A DNA stretch of 64,000 bases from an uncultured Clostridia bacterium (GCA_947623225.1 CANQGO010000005.1:423-64422), one strand, 5' to 3'. Numbered from the stretch's first letter, positions 5,611 to 15,178 are shown. The notes: generated from the letters alone by a model not told the origin. Translations and numbers: made by a program.

Positions 5611-5641
5611 CATTTGTTGACGGAATTTTTCGAAAAAAGTA

Positions 5642-9220: not shown

Positions 9221-10693
9221 ATGAAAAAGATGACGACAAGAAAAATATTGATCATCGCTGTCGCATTTGCACTCATGACGGCACTGACGCTGGCGGCTTG
9301 CTCACCCAAGCCCTTTACACCGGTGACGGACCCCGGCACGGGCAGCGTGGAAGGCAACGGCGGCATAGCGGTGAAGTACGGCGAGTGGCTGTACTATATC
9401 AACGGATACACCAGCGATACCAACGCGGAGAATACCTATACCGACGTGAAGGACGCGCCGCGCGTAGGCTCCGTAGTGCGTATGAAGTTGGCTGACCTGG
9501 AGCAGTGCTTTGAGATACAGAGCGACAAGAACAAGACCTCCGACGACATAGCGCAGTACGTGCGCGAACATGCCGAGACGGTAGTGCCCAGGATATACTA
9601 CAGCGGCAATACCACCACGACGCAGTTCAACGGACTGTATATCTTCGGCGACAGACTGTATATCACCACGCCCAATGACGAACTGACGGCGGGCGGCGAT
9701 ACGCAGACCAGCCAACTCGTGCTGTGCAGCTACAAGCTCGACGGCAGCGACGAGCAACGCCATTTCGTATTCGAGGACAACACAACCCAACTCTGCCTGC
9801 TGGAAAAGAGCGGCAAGGTGGTAGGCACGTACCTGACGGGCAGCAAACTGTACAGTCTGGACGTGGCTGCCGGACAGGGCAAGGAAGTGACGTTCGACGG
9901 TACCGACAAGGCTCCGACGGCGGAGAGCGCGTATACCTCTCCCACCTGGGATATGGCGGGCAAGTGCGTATTCTTCATCGACAAGCTGCTCAATATCTGC
10001 AAACTCGACTTCGGCGCGGACAAGTACACCGTAGTGGTGGACAACCCCGACGTGAAGGTGGAGGAGCACGAGGGCGAGGAGCATGCTCACGTGTCCAGCG
10101 AGGACAGGACCTATACCATCAACTCCGTCAACAACGGCGAAGTGTACTACACCGTAGCGTACAGCAAAAACCCCAGCGTTTCCAATGTCAAACTGTACTG
10201 GGCAGACTCTGCAGGTCAGGACAAGGTGGCATTCAACTCCACTTCCCAGAGCAACCTCAGAGGCTACAAGGGCGGCAAGGTGCTGTACACCGATACTACC
10301 ACTAACCAGGACGGCATATCCTTCTACGGCGTCACTATCATCACCGCCGCCGACGGCTCCACGCAGTCGATAGCATTGGTGCCCGCGTACAACAAGAACT
10401 CCATCACCATAGACAGACTGGAAGGAGATATCCTGTACTACACGGCCAACAGCATCAAGTACACGCTGGATCTGTCCGCTGCCGAGCAGCACAACGGTAC
10501 GCCGTACGCGCGCAACCTTTCCTCTGCGGCAGGCTGGGCGGCACCCGACTTCTTCGCTCACAACGGTACGCAGTATATCATCACCGCGTCCAGTTCCGGC
10601 GGCTTGACGGTAGCCAAGTTCGACCCCGCCAACCCCACCAAGACGCAGAACTCTCTGTCTGTCTTGCTGACGGCGGCTCCCGAAGAAGAGTAA
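9221..10693 (+). CDS. surface lipoprotein, beta-propeller-like (DUF5050-like YY-repeat protein)
   Basis: Lipobox signal MKKMTTRKILIIAVAFALMTALTLAAC. Recurrent strand motifs GEWLYYINGY, GEVYYTVAY and GDILYYTAN. The DUF5050 assignment is by recollection only. Confidence 0.6.
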   Translation: MKKMTTRKILIIAVAFALMTALTLAACSPKPFTPVTDPGTGSVEGNGGIAVKYGEWLYYINGYTSDTNAENTYTDVKDAPRVGSVVRMKLADLEQCFEIQSDKNKTSDDIAQYVREHAETVVPRIYYSGNTTTTQFNGLYIFGDRLYITTPNDELTAGGDTQTSQLVLCSYKLDGSDEQRHFVFEDNTTQLCLLEKSGKVVGTYLTGSKLYSLDVAAGQGKEVTFDGTDKAPTAESAYTSPTWDMAGKCVFFIDKLLNICKLDFGADKYTVVVDNPDVKVEEHEGEEHAHVSSEDRTYTINSVNNGEVYYTVAYSKNPSVSNVKLYWADSAGQDKVAFNSTSQSNLRGYKGGKVLYTDTTTNQDGISFYGVTIITAADGSTQSIALVPAYNKNSITIDRLEGDILYYTANSIKYTLDLSAAEQHNGTPYARNLSSAAGWAAPDFFAHNGTQYIITASSSGGLTVAKFDPANPTKTQNSLSVLLTAAPEEE

Positions 10694-10715: not shown

Positions 10716-10744
10716 AGACCTTGCAGATCGCTGCAAGGTCTTTT
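10716..10744. terminator. bidirectional terminator between convergent genes
   Basis: Stem AGACCTTGCAG, loop ATCG, stem CTGCAAGGTCT, with an A-run upstream and a T-run downstream. Confidence 0.75.
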
Positions 10745-10783: not shown

Positions 10784-11374
10784 TCATGCGAGAGCGCGAG
10801 TGCGGGCGGCAGAGGGTATAAGTTCTCCCGTCAGCCACTTGTAGCCCGCAGCCACAGGCAGTGCGCATAGGAAGGTGGCGGCTGCGCCGGCGAGTTGGTA
10901 GGGCAGGTCTGCGGCAATGTATGCGGCAGGCTGTACGTGCCAGATTAGAACGGTGGCGGCTATGGACACCCAGTAGTACGCTATCTCCGCCAGCGACGCC
11001 ATCGCGGCATAGGACAGCACGCTCATATCGCGGTGGGAGCGGTTGCACAGGCGATAGAGCAGGAAGGGCATCATATAGCCTATCCATACTTCTATGTACC
11101 ATAGGTGCGCGCGCAGCAGTTCGGCGGGGAACCACCCTACGCAGCTGAGTTCGAACAGGACGGCGTACAGCGTGACTATGAGCAGGTTTTTGCCCGCGCT
11201 CATGCTCGCCGCGCATATGATAAGCAATGGAAATACCACATTGGCAAAGGGTATATCCAGCACGAATTGGTCTGTGCACATGGCTGCGAGCACCGTCAGT
11301 GCCGCAAGCCAACCGCCTGCGCCGCCCGTGCGAGCGAGACGCTGTGACTTGGTAAGATTTGTGCAATTGTACAT
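10784..11374 (-). CDS. polytopic membrane protein, ECF S-component-like (putative corrinoid uptake component), 196 aa
   Basis: ATG 11374 with an AAAGGAG RBS. About 5-6 hydrophobic helices. It is the last gene of the riboswitch-controlled operon. The long upstream extension of the track ORF (to 11932) overlaps the real lipoprotein gene in another frame. Confidence 0.5.
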   Translation of the reverse strand: MYNCTNLTKSQRLARTGGAGGWLAALTVLAAMCTDQFVLDIPFANVVFPLLIICAASMSAGKNLLIVTLYAVLFELSCVGWFPAELLRAHLWYIEVWIGYMMPFLLYRLCNRSHRDMSVLSYAAMASLAEIAYYWVSIAATVLIWHVQPAAYIAADLPYQLAGAAATFLCALPVAAGYKWLTGELIPSAARTRALA

Positions 11375-11394
11375 ATATACATATTCTCCTTTGT

Positions 11395-11943
11395 TCAATA
11401 TAGCCAGCCTCTGTACACCAACGTGACCGTTTTGACGTCGTCGTCCGTGCCGAATACCCCGTCCGCGCCCTGTAGCGTCTGGAAATTGGCGGTGTTGCCG
11501 TATTCGCCGTCCACCGCTATGTAGCAGGTCTCGAGATCGTAGTGGCTGCCGTCGGCGAGAGTGCAGTCGTGGAACATATAGAATCGGTGCTGAGACAGGC
11601 GAAATGTGATACTGTCCTCGCTGTCCTCGAAGTACTTGACCACCGACTCGTACACCGTGTTGCCGTAGACGGGTATCGTCCACTCGGCTATGAGTTCGCC
11701 GTCGGCGGTAGAGTGCGGGTAGGCGTCTCCCTCCTCTCTCTCCGTCCTGTCGGTGGGCAGGCGCAGTTCCAGAAGGAACGTAAGGTACTCTTCGTCGCTT
11801 GTCGTGCCCGCTTCGGTGCTCGTCTGCGGCTCTTTCACGCGGTAGTCCGCGTCGTCGGAGGTGGCGTCTTTGCCCCATACTCCGCATGCGGTGAGCAGCA
11901 GGGCACAGGCTGCGAGCATCAGGGCAATGCATATCCGCTTCAT
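11395..11943 (-). CDS. small lipoprotein, 182 aa, unknown family
   Basis: Lipobox MKRICIALMLAACALLLTAC. The start overlaps the upstream gene's stop (ATGA). Confidence 0.7.
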   Translation of the reverse strand: MKRICIALMLAACALLLTACGVWGKDATSDDADYRVKEPQTSTEAGTTSDEEYLTFLLELRLPTDRTEREEGDAYPHSTADGELIAEWTIPVYGNTVYESVVKYFEDSEDSITFRLSQHRFYMFHDCTLADGSHYDLETCYIAVDGEYGNTANFQTLQGADGVFGTDDDVKTVTLVYRGWLY

Positions 11944-13757
11944 AGTACTATCACCTTCTCCGCCGCGTCGTATGCACCCAGCGGAGTGGGAGCGTCTATG
12001 CCCTGTATGTACGCCAGGTAGGCTATAGCTACGGCGAGGTCGATATTGTTGTCTATGACGTACTTGTCACCCTCTGCGGTGAGCGTCTCACGCCATAGCG
12101 TTATTATGTTGTACTCGGTCGGTTCGCCTTCTACGGGTCGAGCAACGGTATAGTGCTCCATGTCTATGCCGTGCATGTAGCCCGTGAGCACAGCCCACTC
12201 CGGCGTGACGTTGGCACCCGTTTCCAATTCGTGGTTGTAGTACTTGCCCAATGTGTCGAGCGTTATCATCTCCTCGAGGGGTTGATTCCAGCCGTCGGTG
12301 AAGGGGAAGTAGCCCTGACGGTACTTCTCGAAGTCCACGTCGTACTCCGGATAGTCGCGGTAGAGCGAGGCGGCTACGGGTCTGCCGCTGGGTCCTACCC
12401 AGTTGGGCGTGCCGCCCTTTCGGGTGAATTCGCCGTTGTCGTCCTTGGCGTAGTAGCCCAGTACGGTGGCGTCGGTGTAGGGCAACTCCGCGTTCAGTGC
12501 CAGATTGGCACGCACGATGGCGAGATAGCTGTACGCCGTCATGCCGAAGGATACCTGCGTCACGGGCAGAAAACTCTTGTAGCGTCCCGCGAAGTCCTTG
12601 CCGTTGGCGTAGGAAGTGAATTGCTGCTCCAGCGTATTCAGCGTGCCCTTGATCTCGCGTATCTGCGCATTGACAGCGGTGCGCTCGGCGGACACCTCGT
12701 CCATCTGCGCCTTGATGGCGGGCTTGTCCTCTTCGCTTGCCGCACGATATTGCGCGTTTAACTCGCTATATTGTACATTCAAAGCGTCGTTTCTGTCGCT
12801 CAGCGGTTGCAACAGCGGTGCTATGCGCTCCTGCTCCGCGAGTATGGCTTCGTATCTCGGCTGCAGCGTCGCGTAGTCGGCGAGGAAGTCGGCGTGACCT
12901 CTGTCGCTGCCCGTGGCTTGCTGTACCGCCGCGAGCAACTGCTCTACGTAGTCCGACGGCATCTCGGCATAGCGCGTGGAAGTCATATTGGAAAAGCGGC
13001 TGTACTTGGCGGCGAGATTGATCTGATATATATTTTCGTCTCCCACTTGGTAGGTATTCTTGGTACCGCCGGACTCCCAAGCGTCGGCTCTTTCCAGATA
13101 GCGCGCTATGGCGTCGGAGTACACGTCGAATGTATTGTCCGTCAGCCCCTTGCCGTGCAGGTACTCCTTGTAGGCATTGGCGGCGATGGAGTAGGTGTAC
13201 AGGTAGTCGAGGATGCCGTACCAGCCCTGAGCCTGCGCTGCGGAGCCGTTCCACTTGTAGTCGGACAACTCGCCCTCTTCTATGAGTTCCGGAAGCATAT
13301 TCATATACTTGCGGAATAGCGCGGCATTGGCGTCGGTGTAGAAGTCGCCCTGCACGTACCGCAGGTATGCAAGGGGCAGCCAGGCGGCAGCCGTCTTGGC
13401 GGAAGATACGGAAGCGGCGAACTCGTCCGAGGCGAGGTACACGCGCAACGCGTCGGCTATACGCTCGGCAAGCGGCGCGTACGAGAAGCGTGCAGTCAGC
13501 GTCACGTCCTCCGTCACGGTATAGGGGAATGACACCCGCACCTCTCCGTCGTAGTACCCGTCGAAGTCAAATCCCGACTTGTGCGGATCCTCCAGCGTCA
13601 GCGCGTCCCCTTCTTGTCGTTCGTAGCGCGTCTGTACGCCATCCACGACGACGGTCACAGTGTGAACAAGCGGCGCAGAGTGCGGCTTGCAAGCCGAGAT
13701 GAACAGGGCAAGCAAGCACACGCACAGCAACGCCGCCATGTGTCTGAGTCTTTTCAT
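11940..13757 (-). CDS. large surface lipoprotein (605 aa): Listeria-Bacteroides-repeat (Flg_new-like) domain plus a long helical region, unknown function
   Basis: Lipobox MKRLRHMAALLCVCLLALFISAC at ATG 13757 with a GGAG RBS. HTVTVVVDGVQTRYERQEGDALTLEDPHKSGFDFDGYYDGEVRVSFPYTVTEDVTLTARF fits the Flg_new repeat pattern. It is the first gene downstream of the cobalamin riboswitch. Confidence 0.7.
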   Translation of the reverse strand: MKRLRHMAALLCVCLLALFISACKPHSAPLVHTVTVVVDGVQTRYERQEGDALTLEDPHKSGFDFDGYYDGEVRVSFPYTVTEDVTLTARFSYAPLAERIADALRVYLASDEFAASVSSAKTAAAWLPLAYLRYVQGDFYTDANAALFRKYMNMLPELIEEGELSDYKWNGSAAQAQGWYGILDYLYTYSIAANAYKEYLHGKGLTDNTFDVYSDAIARYLERADAWESGGTKNTYQVGDENIYQINLAAKYSRFSNMTSTRYAEMPSDYVEQLLAAVQQATGSDRGHADFLADYATLQPRYEAILAEQERIAPLLQPLSDRNDALNVQYSELNAQYRAASEEDKPAIKAQMDEVSAERTAVNAQIREIKGTLNTLEQQFTSYANGKDFAGRYKSFLPVTQVSFGMTAYSYLAIVRANLALNAELPYTDATVLGYYAKDDNGEFTRKGGTPNWVGPSGRPVAASLYRDYPEYDVDFEKYRQGYFPFTDGWNQPLEEMITLDTLGKYYNHELETGANVTPEWAVLTGYMHGIDMEHYTVARPVEGEPTEYNIITLWRETLTAEGDKYVIDNNIDLAVAIAYLAYIQGIDAPTPLGAYDAAEKVIVL

Positions 13758-13786
13758 AGTCCAATCTCCATTCAATGTAATTTCAA

Positions 13787-13812
13787 GGGTCTCCCATAGA
13801 CAAAGAGACCCC
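13787..13812 (-). terminator. expression-platform hairpin (possible attenuator) of the riboswitch
   Basis: On the minus-strand RNA, GGGTCTC, loop TTTGTCTATG, GAGACCC, then TTGAAATT. It lies about 30 nt upstream of ATG 13757. The U-tract is weak. Confidence 0.4.
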
Positions 13813-13850
13813 TTTCCGCGCTTTTCTCGAAACGCAGACAAAATCTCAAC

Positions 13851-14008
13851 GTGGGCGTGGCATTCGGACTTGTCCGAGCACTGTGTGTCGGCTTACCGTT
13901 GCGGAACAGTCCCCGATTCTCACGGGGTTCCCCGTTTGATGCACATACTTGCGCCGTGCAACCCAGGTGTATTCAATTGAGATCATCGTACCCTCTCGGG
14001 CACATTAC
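13851..14008 (-). promoter_or_regulatory. cobalamin (B12) riboswitch
   Basis: The minus-strand RNA contains AAACGGGGAACCCCGUGAGAAUCGGGGACUGUUCCGCAACGGUAAGCC (the conserved GGGAA...GUG.GAAU.C...CCGCAAC.GUAA core). It also contains the B12-box AGUCCGAAUGCCACGCC. Confidence 0.8.
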
Positions 14009-14009
14009 C

Positions 14010-14038
14010 ATTATATACCCGCACCGTCCCGCCGTCAA
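14010..14038 (-). promoter_or_regulatory. sigma-A promoter driving the riboswitch operon
   Basis: Minus strand: TTGACG (14038-14033), a 17-nt spacer, then TATAAT (14015-14010). Confidence 0.65.
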
Positions 14039-14053: not shown

Positions 14054-14082
14054 TTGACAAAAGCGGCGGACTACGCTATACT
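14054..14082 (+). promoter_or_regulatory. divergent sigma-A promoter for the DUF4430-like gene
   Basis: TTGACA (14054-14059), a 17-nt spacer, then TATACT (14077-14082). Only about 17 nt remain before ATG 14100, so this side has no room for a riboswitch. Confidence 0.6.
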
Positions 14083-14099: not shown

Positions 14100-14573
14100 A
14101 TGAAAAGGTATGTATATGTGCTCATATGTATATGTGCGGCGTTGATGATATGCCTGACGGGCTGCGTGGACAAGGCGGAAGGTACGACGCTCGAAGGTCT
14201 GACGTTGCCGACTCTCAGTGACGGTCAGATGGCGGTGGTGGTCAAGGGCGACGGCTACGAGTGCCACACCGTGACGTTGACGGAGGACATACGTACCTGC
14301 GAGGACGCGTTGGATAGCCTGTATGAGCAGGGCGCGTTGGATATCCGCTGGTCGGATACCGGCTACGGCAAGTATATAGAGAGCGTGGGCGGCGCGGTAC
14401 CCGGCACGGGTCAGTGGATAGCCGTGTACACCGACATGGAAGAGTATAGGGACAGCGGCGCGTATGCCGTGACGTACCTTGTAGGCGAGCGCACGCTGAC
14501 GTCGGCAAAGACGGGCGTGTCCGACCTGCCCGCAAGGAGCGGCTCCGTGCTGTATCTGGAGATCGCAGGCTGA
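14100..14573 (+). CDS. DUF4430-like (transcobalamin beta-domain-like) lipoprotein
   Basis: Lipobox MKRYVYVLICICAALMICLTGC. ALDSLYEQGALDIRWSDTGYGKYIESVGG...GQWIAVYTD resembles the DUF4430 GYG.Y(I/V).S(I/V).G pattern. The family call is from memory. Confidence 0.55.
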   Translation: MKRYVYVLICICAALMICLTGCVDKAEGTTLEGLTLPTLSDGQMAVVVKGDGYECHTVTLTEDIRTCEDALDSLYEQGALDIRWSDTGYGKYIESVGGAVPGTGQWIAVYTDMEEYRDSGAYAVTYLVGERTLTSAKTGVSDLPARSGSVLYLEIAG

Positions 14574-14578
14574 TAATT

Positions 14579-15178
14579 ATGAAACGTATCCGTTCACGAG
14601 GCGGCTATAGTGCCGTACTTATAGCGGTGGCAGCCATGTATGCCGCGCTGCTGGTAGGGGGCAAGGAGATACTCGCCGCCCTTCCCAATGTAGAGATAGT
14701 AACGCTGCTGACGGCGGTGTGCGCCTACGTATGGGGCGGCATGGCGTTTGCCTCGGTGAATGTATTCATCGCGGCGGATATGGCTATATGGGGCGTGAAT
14801 ACCTGGATATTGACCTACCTCGTGCACTGGAACGCCGTCGCGCTGTGCTTTTTCCTGCTGGGCAGGGCGCGCTTTCGCCACAGACGCGTGGAAGTGCTGT
14901 GTGTGACGGCGGCGGCAATTGTACTTACGGTGCTGTTCGGCGTGACGAGTACCATAGTGGATACGTCCATCGGCTACACGGGTAAGGGATTTTTCACCGA
15001 CTTTGAGCAGTTTTTCCCCCGCTTTGCCGCGTTGTACACCGCAGGCGCACCCTTTTTCATCACCCAGACAGTGTGCAATGCCGTCCTGTTCCCGACGGCT
15101 TTTGTGCCGCTGTGTCGGCTGAATGTCCGGGCAAAGACCCGCCTGCAGCCGCCGAGCGAAGAGGGGCAAAGCGATTGA
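14579..15178 (+). CDS. polytopic membrane protein, ECF S-component-like, probable paralog of 10784-11374
   Basis: About 5-6 TM helices, starting 5 nt after the DUF4430-like gene. Its helix and charge pattern is similar to that of the 10784-11374 product. Confidence 0.5.
   Translation: MKRIRSRGGYSAVLIAVAAMYAALLVGGKEILAALPNVEIVTLLTAVCAYVWGGMAFASVNVFIAADMAIWGVNTWILTYLVHWNAVALCFFLLGRARFRHRRVEVLCVTAAAIVLTVLFGVTSTIVDTSIGYTGKGFFTDFEQFFPRFAALYTAGAPFFITQTVCNAVLFPTAFVPLCRLNVRAKTRLQPPSEEGQSD

Follow-up and report, generated by a model that had tools for sequence, protein, structure and literature searches.

An uncharacterised operon behind a cobalamin riboswitch

The DNA analysed here, referred to as the window, is a stretch of 64,000 nucleotides from an uncultured Clostridia bacterium (GCA_947623225.1, CANQGO010000005.1:423-64422), and the subject is an operon on its minus strand in which a cobalamin riboswitch precedes three genes, here called g1, g2 and g3 (Table 1). 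A preliminary description, made from the sequence alone, had assigned to these genes two lipoproteins and a membrane protein of the lengths given in Table 1, and both the open reading frames (ORFs) and the lipobox cysteines agree with this. All three predicted lipoproteins discussed below (g1, g2 and the product of a divergent gene, d1) carry a lipobox, from which lipid anchoring is predicted, and the lipobox cysteines of g1 and g2 are invariant among homologues. The preliminary description had also seen the three genes as translationally coupled, which stands for g1 and g2, with their overlapping stop and start codons, but not for g2 and g3, which are separated by 20 nt and a ribosome-binding site (RBS) belonging to g3. 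The terminator that ends the operon is common to a convergent lipoprotein gene. The promoter that had been proposed ahead of the riboswitch was recovered in a promoter scan as one of three sites tied for the top score; promoter-like sites were observed at 8 per 5 kb compared with 3.0 +/- 2.1 expected.

Table 1. Features of the riboswitch operon, of the g1 protein model and of the adjoining divergent gene pair
Feature	Position	Strand	Details
Sigma-70-type promoter of the riboswitch operon	14038..14010	-	TTGACG-N17-TATAAT, 11/12 positions match
5' leader strand, able to pair with the RBS region	13982..13972	-	UCUCAAUUGAA; consensus helix, 8 relatives
Cobalamin riboswitch aptamer, RF00174	13981..13837	-	48.2 bits (cut-off 31.5), E 5.4e-9, full model 1-189
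Expression-platform hairpin 1	13834..13819	-	conserved 5-bp stem
Expression-platform hairpin 2	13811..13785	-	GGGUCUC...GAGACCC, no U-tract; 10 pairs, several compensatory
RBS-containing strand	13775..13765	-	UUGAAUGGAGA; GGAG 13769..13766, start codon 13757
g1, 605-aa lipoprotein	13757..11940	-	lipobox ISAC, Cys23
g1, B-repeat/Flg_new-like small beta domain	residues 30-93		model and Foldseek
g1, aromatic-rich helical domain	residues 95-296		model
g1, long antiparallel coiled-coil hairpin	residues 298-387		model
g1, conserved alpha/beta domain	residues 395-605		model
g2, 182-aa lipoprotein	11943..11395	-	lipobox Cys20; start overlaps g1 stop (ATGA)
g3, 196-aa membrane protein	11374..10784	-	own RBS AGGAG at 11390..11386
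Intrinsic terminator ending the operon, bidirectional	10741..10716	-	11-bp stem, 6 G-C pairs, T-run
Divergent promoter for d1-d2	14054..14082	+	TTGACA-N17-TATACT, 11/12 matches
d1, 157-aa lipoprotein	14100..14573	+	lipobox LTGC
d2, 199-aa membrane protein, predicted second remote CbrT-family S-component	14579..15178	+	profile-profile comparison

None of the three products has a significant match in Pfam or NCBIfam, in keeping with the uncharacterised operon of the preliminary description, and sequence profile searches of the PDB gave no match for g2 or g3. Homologues form 59 clusters for g1, 50 for g2 and 137 for g3 (with at least 54% identity to g3 for the 120 clusters listed), all of them unnamed or hypothetical; they come from gut metagenomes and Clostridia metagenome-assembled genomes. 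In Pfam and NCBIfam searches the trio shows none of the BtuFCD-type domains Peripla_BP_2, FecCD and ABC_tran, which the same search readily detects in a positive case (locus L129), and neither a CbiM/N/Q/O-type nor an enzyme-like signature. The earlier remark that no product of the trio is recognisably of the BtuFCD, BtuB or CbrT-operon kind holds for CbrT at ordinary sensitivity, but not at the profile-profile level described below.

Riboswitch and leader RNA

RF00174 (Cobalamin) was the sole family to reach its gathering score anywhere in the window in a cmscan search against Rfam, and it exceeded that score across the full aptamer in the leader of g1 (Table 1). This settles the cobalamin riboswitch of the preliminary description, whose quoted riboswitch core and B12 box are both present in the sequence. 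The window leader was aligned with those of seven close relatives, and the consensus fold computed from the eight leaders retains the aptamer, the second hairpin and an outer helix between the 5' leader and the RBS. Two-sided changes occur in 17 of the 55 predicted pairs, aptamer helices included. The outer helix (alignment columns 29-39 with 241-251) is kept in the eight relatives, again with some two-sided changes.

Where a single hairpin had been described after the aptamer there are two, neither of which is followed by a U-tract, and the second was not called in the terminator scan. Because the leader holds no terminator-like element, the riboswitch more likely acts on the initiation of translation than on transcription, and the pairing of the 5' leader with the RBS would presumably depend on the ligand.

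Conservation of the trio and its coupling to cobalamin aptamers

A survey of one genome per GTDB species, with gene order established by tblastn, found 27 g1 loci in Christensenella, Pumilibacter and unnamed Clostridia, all of them from animal guts and Christensenellales-like. The order g1-g2-g3 is conserved in 26 of the 27 species loci, and g2 always lies directly upstream of g3. Upstream of g1, RF00174 is found at or above the cut-off in 13 loci and a divergent cobalamin-type aptamer in 11, while two loci (L024 and L026) have no leader at all and in one (L009) the region is truncated. Since 13 loci match RF00174 and the remaining 11 are matched by a model built from confirmed riboswitches, a cobalamin-type aptamer precedes the trio in 24 of the 26 assessable species loci, so that a search for the riboswitch and trio in other Clostridia, suggested in the preliminary description, found both widely together. 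At the two leaderless loci (L024:5887-8284 and L026:5938-8231), one of which belongs to Pumilibacter muris, a short-form g1 with g2 and g3 stands right after the terminator of a housekeeping gene; RF00174 is present in their nearest relatives (L025, L027 and L030).

The divergent leaders share a motif that a pattern scan of metagenomes found at 111 places, and in 10 of 14 re-scanned loci RF00174 lies over exactly this motif (36-89 bits). What looks like a T-arm is the T-loop hairpin of the aptamer, with the B12 box represented by the AAGUC...CCGU further downstream. A leader resembling transfer RNA (tRNA) or transfer-messenger RNA (tmRNA) was considered and rejected (a partial tmRNA match reached 19 bits and ARAGORN calls nothing), the motif being the P1-P5 core of cobalamin riboswitches; a T-box-like UGGN/NCCA pairing or a tRNA mimic was dropped on the same recognition. 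A sequence model, R1, built solely from nine Rfam-confirmed members of the subtype, matches the leaders of all the trio loci that remained, L024 and L026 excepted (E 3e-12 to 9e-20).

Carriers of the divergent subtype are L001:7856-8240, L016:3284-3575, L011, L013-15, L017, L019, L021, L023, L028 and L029. Their leaders fall under the RF00174 cut-off, that of L016 not being listed even at E up to 10; they keep the 5' core but lack the usual GCCAUUGGG...GAGAAGGC extension, and most have a B12-box-like element and several a terminator. About 40% of the trio-bearing species use this subtype, which Rfam misses. At L011 the trio's divergent cobalamin-type leader is preceded, at a distance of about 450 nt, by an S-adenosylmethionine riboswitch (RF00162, 54 bits, L011:234-318).

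Regulon of the divergent subtype

Elsewhere the subtype fronts DUF4430 proteins with EcfT, EcfAA' and a CbrT-like S-component after them, a FecCD permease together with a Peripla_BP_2 lipoprotein, a CbiK-domain lipoprotein, a protein that joins a prenyltransferase-like alpha/alpha toroid to DUF4430, and very large GLUG-repeat surface proteins, several with a terminal DUF4430. In transcobalamin-family proteins DUF4430 forms the C-terminal domain (PMC4350170), and the regulon of this riboswitch subtype is, to judge from its gene content, one of corrinoid uptake.

Several of these loci deserve mention in their own right. Very large secreted proteins (600-1400 aa) lie 3' of the riboswitch at L037:4224-8078 and at L043, L046, L047, L033, L034 and L042; the one scanned, from L037, contains the GLUG motif and several end in DUF4430, while at L043 and L047 the large protein is followed by a DUF4430 protein and EcfT, and at L047 also by a CbrT-like S-component. 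They are candidates for another kind of corrinoid capture at the cell surface. At L048 (612 aa, ending near 5635) and L111, a protein encoded behind a cobalamin riboswitch joins a prenyltransferase/squalene-cyclase-like alpha/alpha toroid to a membrane helix and ends in a DUF4430 domain (PF14478, E 3e-18), with split versions at L076 and L114; the predicted layout of the L048 protein is the two-domain plan of transcobalamin. At L036, and similarly at L124, a riboswitch-type leader, not called by Rfam in L036, precedes two lipoproteins, the first with a CbiK cobalt-chelatase domain (E 3e-69) and the second weakly NEAT-like (ORFs 365 and 1558 nt after the motif in L036), and here a chelatase fold could be used for extracellular tetrapyrrole binding.

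g3 as a predicted remote CbrT-family S-component

In a crude hydropathy plot of g3, five segments are clearly hydrophobic and one is amphipathic; basic residues lie at the two ends of the protein and in the loop at 109-116, and Cys33, Cys78 and Cys170 are invariant. No direct link from g3 to an S-component of an energy-coupling factor (ECF) transporter was obtained by Pfam, NCBIfam, hidden Markov model (HMM) searches of the PDB or exhaustive HMMER search, and HMM searches of PDB sequences with three profiles gave nothing at E up to 10. The exhaustive HMMER search with the g3 profile, which found 14 representatives among 1.84 billion proteins, divergent members included, supplied the sequences that bridge g3 to S-components. 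One distant relative, P0241 (28% identical to g3), directly follows a 141-aa DUF4430 protein on two contigs, in each case behind a riboswitch (97 and 93 bits). Another, P0234 (34% identical), lies downstream of a g2-like gene and is the only one with a PF07155 match (E 0.15). The g3 family and the P0241/P0242 family are joined by hhalign at 98% (E 2e-13).

The S-components of DUF4430-ECF operons match the S-component of ECF-CbrT (6FNP_A) over its full length (E 2.1e-8), and together with CbrT they were combined into a CbrT-type profile, with reversed and EcfT profiles as controls. Against this profile, the g3 superfamily profile A8 reached 90.8% (E 1.2e-6, 162 colinear columns) and the divergently encoded d2 reached 89.7% (E 1.8e-6, 180 colinear columns), compared with at most 4.6% for reversed-sequence controls (1.7% for A8, 4.6% for d2) and at most 0.4% for EcfT controls (0.2% for A8). 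Because the g3 family alone (A4) gives 1.3%, the assignment is remote and dependent on the bridging sequences. On this profile-profile evidence g3 is best described as a remote CbrT-family ECF S-component, in line with the S-component ventured in the preliminary description. CbrT of ECF-CbrT (PDB 6FNP) carries both cobalamin and cobinamide and requires its ECF module (PMC5997447).

Architecture of the two lipoproteins

The AlphaFold model of g1 (predicted local distance difference test, pLDDT, 89.6; predicted template modelling score 0.80) has four regions (Table 1). The Flg_new-type repeat of the preliminary description does not reach the Pfam cut-off (PF09479, 16.6 bits against 27), although many g1 homologues carry PF09479, but its fold as an InlB B-repeat stands: in a Foldseek search of the PDB the domain matched chains C and D of 2y5p with a target template modelling (TM) score of 0.75-0.78 (E 6e-3), superposing at a root-mean-square deviation of about 2 A across 70 residues with 30% identity. 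The aromatic-rich helical region that had been noted is likewise real, phenylalanine, tryptophan and tyrosine together making up 14-15% of the two core domains. The invariant residues of the core are largely tyrosine, tryptophan and phenylalanine, and the motifs GGTPNWVG and QGYFPFTDGW are invariant. Homologues range from 373 to 978 aa, and since the short forms (373-394 aa) drop the B-repeat and the coiled coil while retaining the rest, the conserved core is taken to be the aromatic-rich helical domain together with the C-terminal domain. Fold matches of g1 to ABC exporters and coiled coils had TM scores below 0.2 and were disregarded. The likeness of the helical part to the transcobalamin barrel, suggested earlier, did not materialise: Foldseek matched only the B-repeat, and no transcobalamin, intrinsic factor, haptocorrin or prenyltransferase match in the PDB pointed to an alpha6/alpha6 barrel.

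A g1-like core also occurs in P0039 and P0042, where it is followed by immunoglobulin (Ig)-like domains and then a DUF4430 domain. The P0039 operon (L003) has a 92-bit riboswitch, a second DUF4430 protein, EcfT, EcfAA' and an S-component, without g2 or g3. This fusion and the coupling to an aptamer in 24 of 26 loci strengthen the corrinoid link of the preliminary description beyond a single riboswitch. Between the fusion gene and the DUF4430/ECF genes, L003:10912-12849 encodes a 645-aa protein without a Pfam match, which may be another uncharacterised component of the riboswitch operon.

The model of g2 (pLDDT 90.7) is a beta-rich domain of about 125 aa with one helix. The protein has 25 invariant residues, H77 included, and is conserved on a par with g3 (50-69% identity). 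Its best Foldseek match in the PDB is 3kq4_A, intrinsic factor with cobalamin (probability 0.75, query TM 0.39), which at E 0.34 is not significant; the remaining matches listed have probabilities of 0.09 or less. Any transcobalamin-family signal is a weak one and belongs to g2 rather than to g1, where the preliminary description had placed it, and the modelled fold match can serve as a lead only. The protein occupies the slot that a DUF4430 protein holds in two-gene operons. A cryptic DUF4430 identity of g2, sought by sequence, gave no signal, PF14478 being found in 0 of 38 members (Pfam, E up to 10). A 2.4-kb contig (L143:3-1485) carries a very divergent g2-like gene, a 104-aa ORF, a g3-like gene (34% identity) and several small orphan ORFs, and appears from these genes to be a g2/g3 pairing outside the main clade.

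Proposed function and alternatives

The operon probably encodes a module that captures and takes up corrinoids (the vitamin B12 family) and is shut down while intracellular cobamide is ample. Under cobamide shortage the RBS would be left free by the riboswitch, and g1, g2 and g3 would be made. In a Gram-positive-type cell, lipid anchors would hold g1 and g2 to the outer side of the cytoplasmic membrane, with g1 projected outward by its B-repeat domain and coiled-coil stalk, and both would bind corrinoids and hand them over to g3. This protein, with about six predicted helices and a distant relation to CbrT, would move the corrinoid through the membrane, in all likelihood docked on a shared EcfA/A'/T module encoded elsewhere. 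The logic of the operon appears to match that of larger Clostridial B12 operons, with a surface protein (g1), a small extracytoplasmic protein (g2) and an S-component (g3).

Several points weigh against this reading. Corrinoid binding by g1 and g2 is a step that we infer, as are the direction of the hand-off and the use of an ECF module. The body of g1 has no structural relative in the PDB by Foldseek, the B-repeat alone being matched. The match of g2 to intrinsic factor falls short of significance, no transcobalamin or haptocorrin chain is among its best 50 fold matches, and hhalign comparisons of g2 with DUF4430, made with a thin profile and with a ten-member profile with a reversed control, aligned signal peptides only. 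The g3 family alone fails to reach the S-components, so that bridging distant members are needed, and the profiles are thin. CbrT alone gives no uptake (PMC5997447), and neither EcfA/A'/T nor another ECF module was found among the ten neighbouring window ORFs scanned. The trio stands without a leader at L024 and L026, and it is incomplete at L018, where g1 occurs alone behind a 105-bit riboswitch.

A broader proposal, tentative and with rather less in its favour than the module itself, is that ECF-type B12 uptake in Christensenellales-type gut Clostridia departs from the textbook view, where nothing but the S-component binds the substrate. Here g1 and g2 would represent new corrinoid-binding folds that capture cobamides at the cell surface and feed a highly diverged CbrT-like S-component, possibly without a dedicated ECF module, as a Gram-positive counterpart of the BtuJ/H/G relay of Bacteroides.

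Among the alternatives, the one that survives best, although unlikely, is that g3 is a B12-type S-component whose lipoprotein partners are non-binding accessories, for instance scaffolds that span the wall, proteins that stabilise g3, or adhesins holding the cell close to B12 producers. The B-repeat and coiled-coil stalk of g1 are of an adhesin type, its architecture is highly variable in length, neither lipoprotein has a significant match to a known B12 binder, and canonical ECF transporters do without an extracytoplasmic binding protein (PMC5997447). However, g2 is as conserved as g3 and never parted from its upstream position, it takes the place of the DUF4430 protein in two-gene operons, and the g1 core is found fused to DUF4430. 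The solitary g1 of L018, kept behind its riboswitch, also speaks against a mere accessory role, as do the invariant core residues of g1, which are mostly aromatic like those of known corrin pockets (PMC13616437 for BtuH).

Less likely still is a related substrate that is not a complete cobamide: cobalt, a lower-ligand base, or a corrinoid precursor such as cobinamide. Cobalamin riboswitches also govern cobalt and precursor transport, as is well established, and g3 is so unlike CbrT that its invariant cysteines could fit another ligand. CbrT itself was first predicted to be a precursor transporter and carries cobinamide besides cobalamin (PMC5997447). Against this, the partners of g1-like and g3-like proteins are DUF4430 domains of the transcobalamin C-terminal type (PMC4350170), the trio lacks a CbiM/N/Q/O-type signature in Pfam and NCBIfam, and large aromatic-rich surface binders would be unexpected for a metal ion. 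That the trio is unrelated to corrinoid acquisition and merely B12-repressed, for envelope remodelling or a B12-independent substitute activity, is very improbable: all three families are uncharacterised and two species lack the riboswitch, but the aptamer is coupled to the trio in nearly all species loci, g3 is remotely homologous to CbrT-type S-components, the associations with DUF4430 are independent of one another, and none of the three proteins has an enzyme-like signature.

Neighbouring genes

The divergent pair d1-d2 adjoins the trio and is conserved there only in its closest relatives (L005-L008, tblastn). It stands outside riboswitch control, its leader being only about 18 nt long. 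The direct profile comparison of d2 with g3 was not significant, and their relation arises only via the CbrT-type profile. One d1 homologue has PF14478 (DUF4430) as its sole match, at E 0.1, and hhalign aligned d1 with the DUF4430 profile over a 21-column motif with a probability of 41%; d1 is possibly, on these weak similarities, a degenerate DUF4430 protein. A relation of d1 to g2 was rejected, the profile match being carried by the signal peptide. On the other side of the operon, a 490-aa lipoprotein gene without a family match (9221..10693, plus strand) converges on the operon terminator and keeps its position in L006-L008 (55-68% identity).

Comparison with known systems

The trio was not found described in the searchable literature. 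Gut communities are shaped by competition for cobamides, and surface capture is known in detail only for Bacteroidota; in Gram-positive Firmicutes, extracellular capture "remains entirely uncharacterized" according to a review of 2026 (PMC13616437). At this locus, three small conserved genes tied to a riboswitch are open to direct expression and testing; two of them encode lipoproteins with confident models and without solved relatives, coupled to a predicted diverged member of the one B12 S-component family that has been characterised. The locus also exposes gaps in annotation, in that none of the three protein families has a Pfam or NCBIfam model and Rfam misses the riboswitch subtype.

The nearest characterised relative is ECF-CbrT of Lactobacillus delbrueckii (PDB 6FNP; PMC5997447). 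Both g3 and d2 align with the CbrT-type profile over their full length at about 90% in hhalign, are of similar size with about six predicted helices, and share with it a motif after helix 1 (IPNVQPVT in CbrT, LPNVEIVT in d2 and IPFANVVF in g3); control by a cobalamin riboswitch is found in relatives. On the other hand, g3 has no detectable pairwise or HMM-to-sequence similarity to 6FNP_A, its family is isolated (the 14 representatives noted above), it has no EcfA/A'/T among the neighbouring ORFs scanned, and it is always paired with dedicated lipoproteins, of which ECF-CbrT has none.

The operons of gut Clostridia that combine a surface protein, a DUF4430 protein and ECF-CbrT (L003, L041, L043, L047, L072 and L130) share with the trio the type of regulatory RNA and the order of extracytoplasmic protein or proteins followed by an S-component, and at L003 a g1-like core is fused to DUF4430 in P0039. 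EcfT and EcfAA' are part of these operons, as is a CbrT homologue that can be recognised as such (E 2e-8 to 6FNP), whereas the trio of the window has g2, a new family, in place of DUF4430 and the divergent g3 in place of the S-component, without an energising module.

With the transcobalamin, intrinsic factor and haptocorrin family (an alpha/alpha barrel and a DUF4430 beta domain) the system shares the best, non-significant fold match of g2 and the position of g2 in the DUF4430 slot, as well as a two-domain bacterial analogue, toroid plus DUF4430, in the same regulon (L048). It differs in that g2 has no PF14478 signal and g1 no alpha/alpha-barrel match. BtuM is reportedly a solitary S-component-like B12 transporter of Proteobacteria, and like g3 it is said to be a small S-component-type membrane protein with conserved cysteines that may work without a dedicated ECF module. 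Unlike g3 it is said to lack lipoprotein partners, and g3 matches no PDB chain, the solved BtuM presumably being among them.

In Bacteroides, the BtuJ/BtuH/BtuK/BtuG and BtuB relay (PMC13616437) also places riboswitch-controlled, lipid-anchored extracellular proteins beside a transporter, with variable N-terminal Ig-like or repeat domains before a conserved core and with fusions of binder modules. The two systems differ in that g1 and g2 are not beta-propellers, that the cell of the trio has neither an outer membrane nor a TonB transporter, and that the acceptor would be an ECF S-component and not BtuB. Neither Pfam and NCBIfam nor the Foldseek PDB matches of g1 and g2 gave a BtuG beta-propeller, a BtuH domain or a BtuJ DUF4465 jellyroll, and by predicted secondary structure g1 is helical and g2 a small beta-alpha domain. 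As no resemblance was seen, the analogy with BtuG/BtuH-type binders drawn in the preliminary description keeps its functional sense but loses any sense of shared sequence or fold.

ECF transporters by definition lack an extracytoplasmic substrate-binding protein, and the partnership of g3 with g1 and g2 would be unusual for an ECF system. If g1 and g2 bind corrinoids, they would provide two new B12-binding folds and ECF transporters could recruit extracellular capture proteins. Set beside the known systems the riboswitch is ordinary, and what is new is the protein trio, within the familiar setting of riboswitch-controlled B12 uptake.

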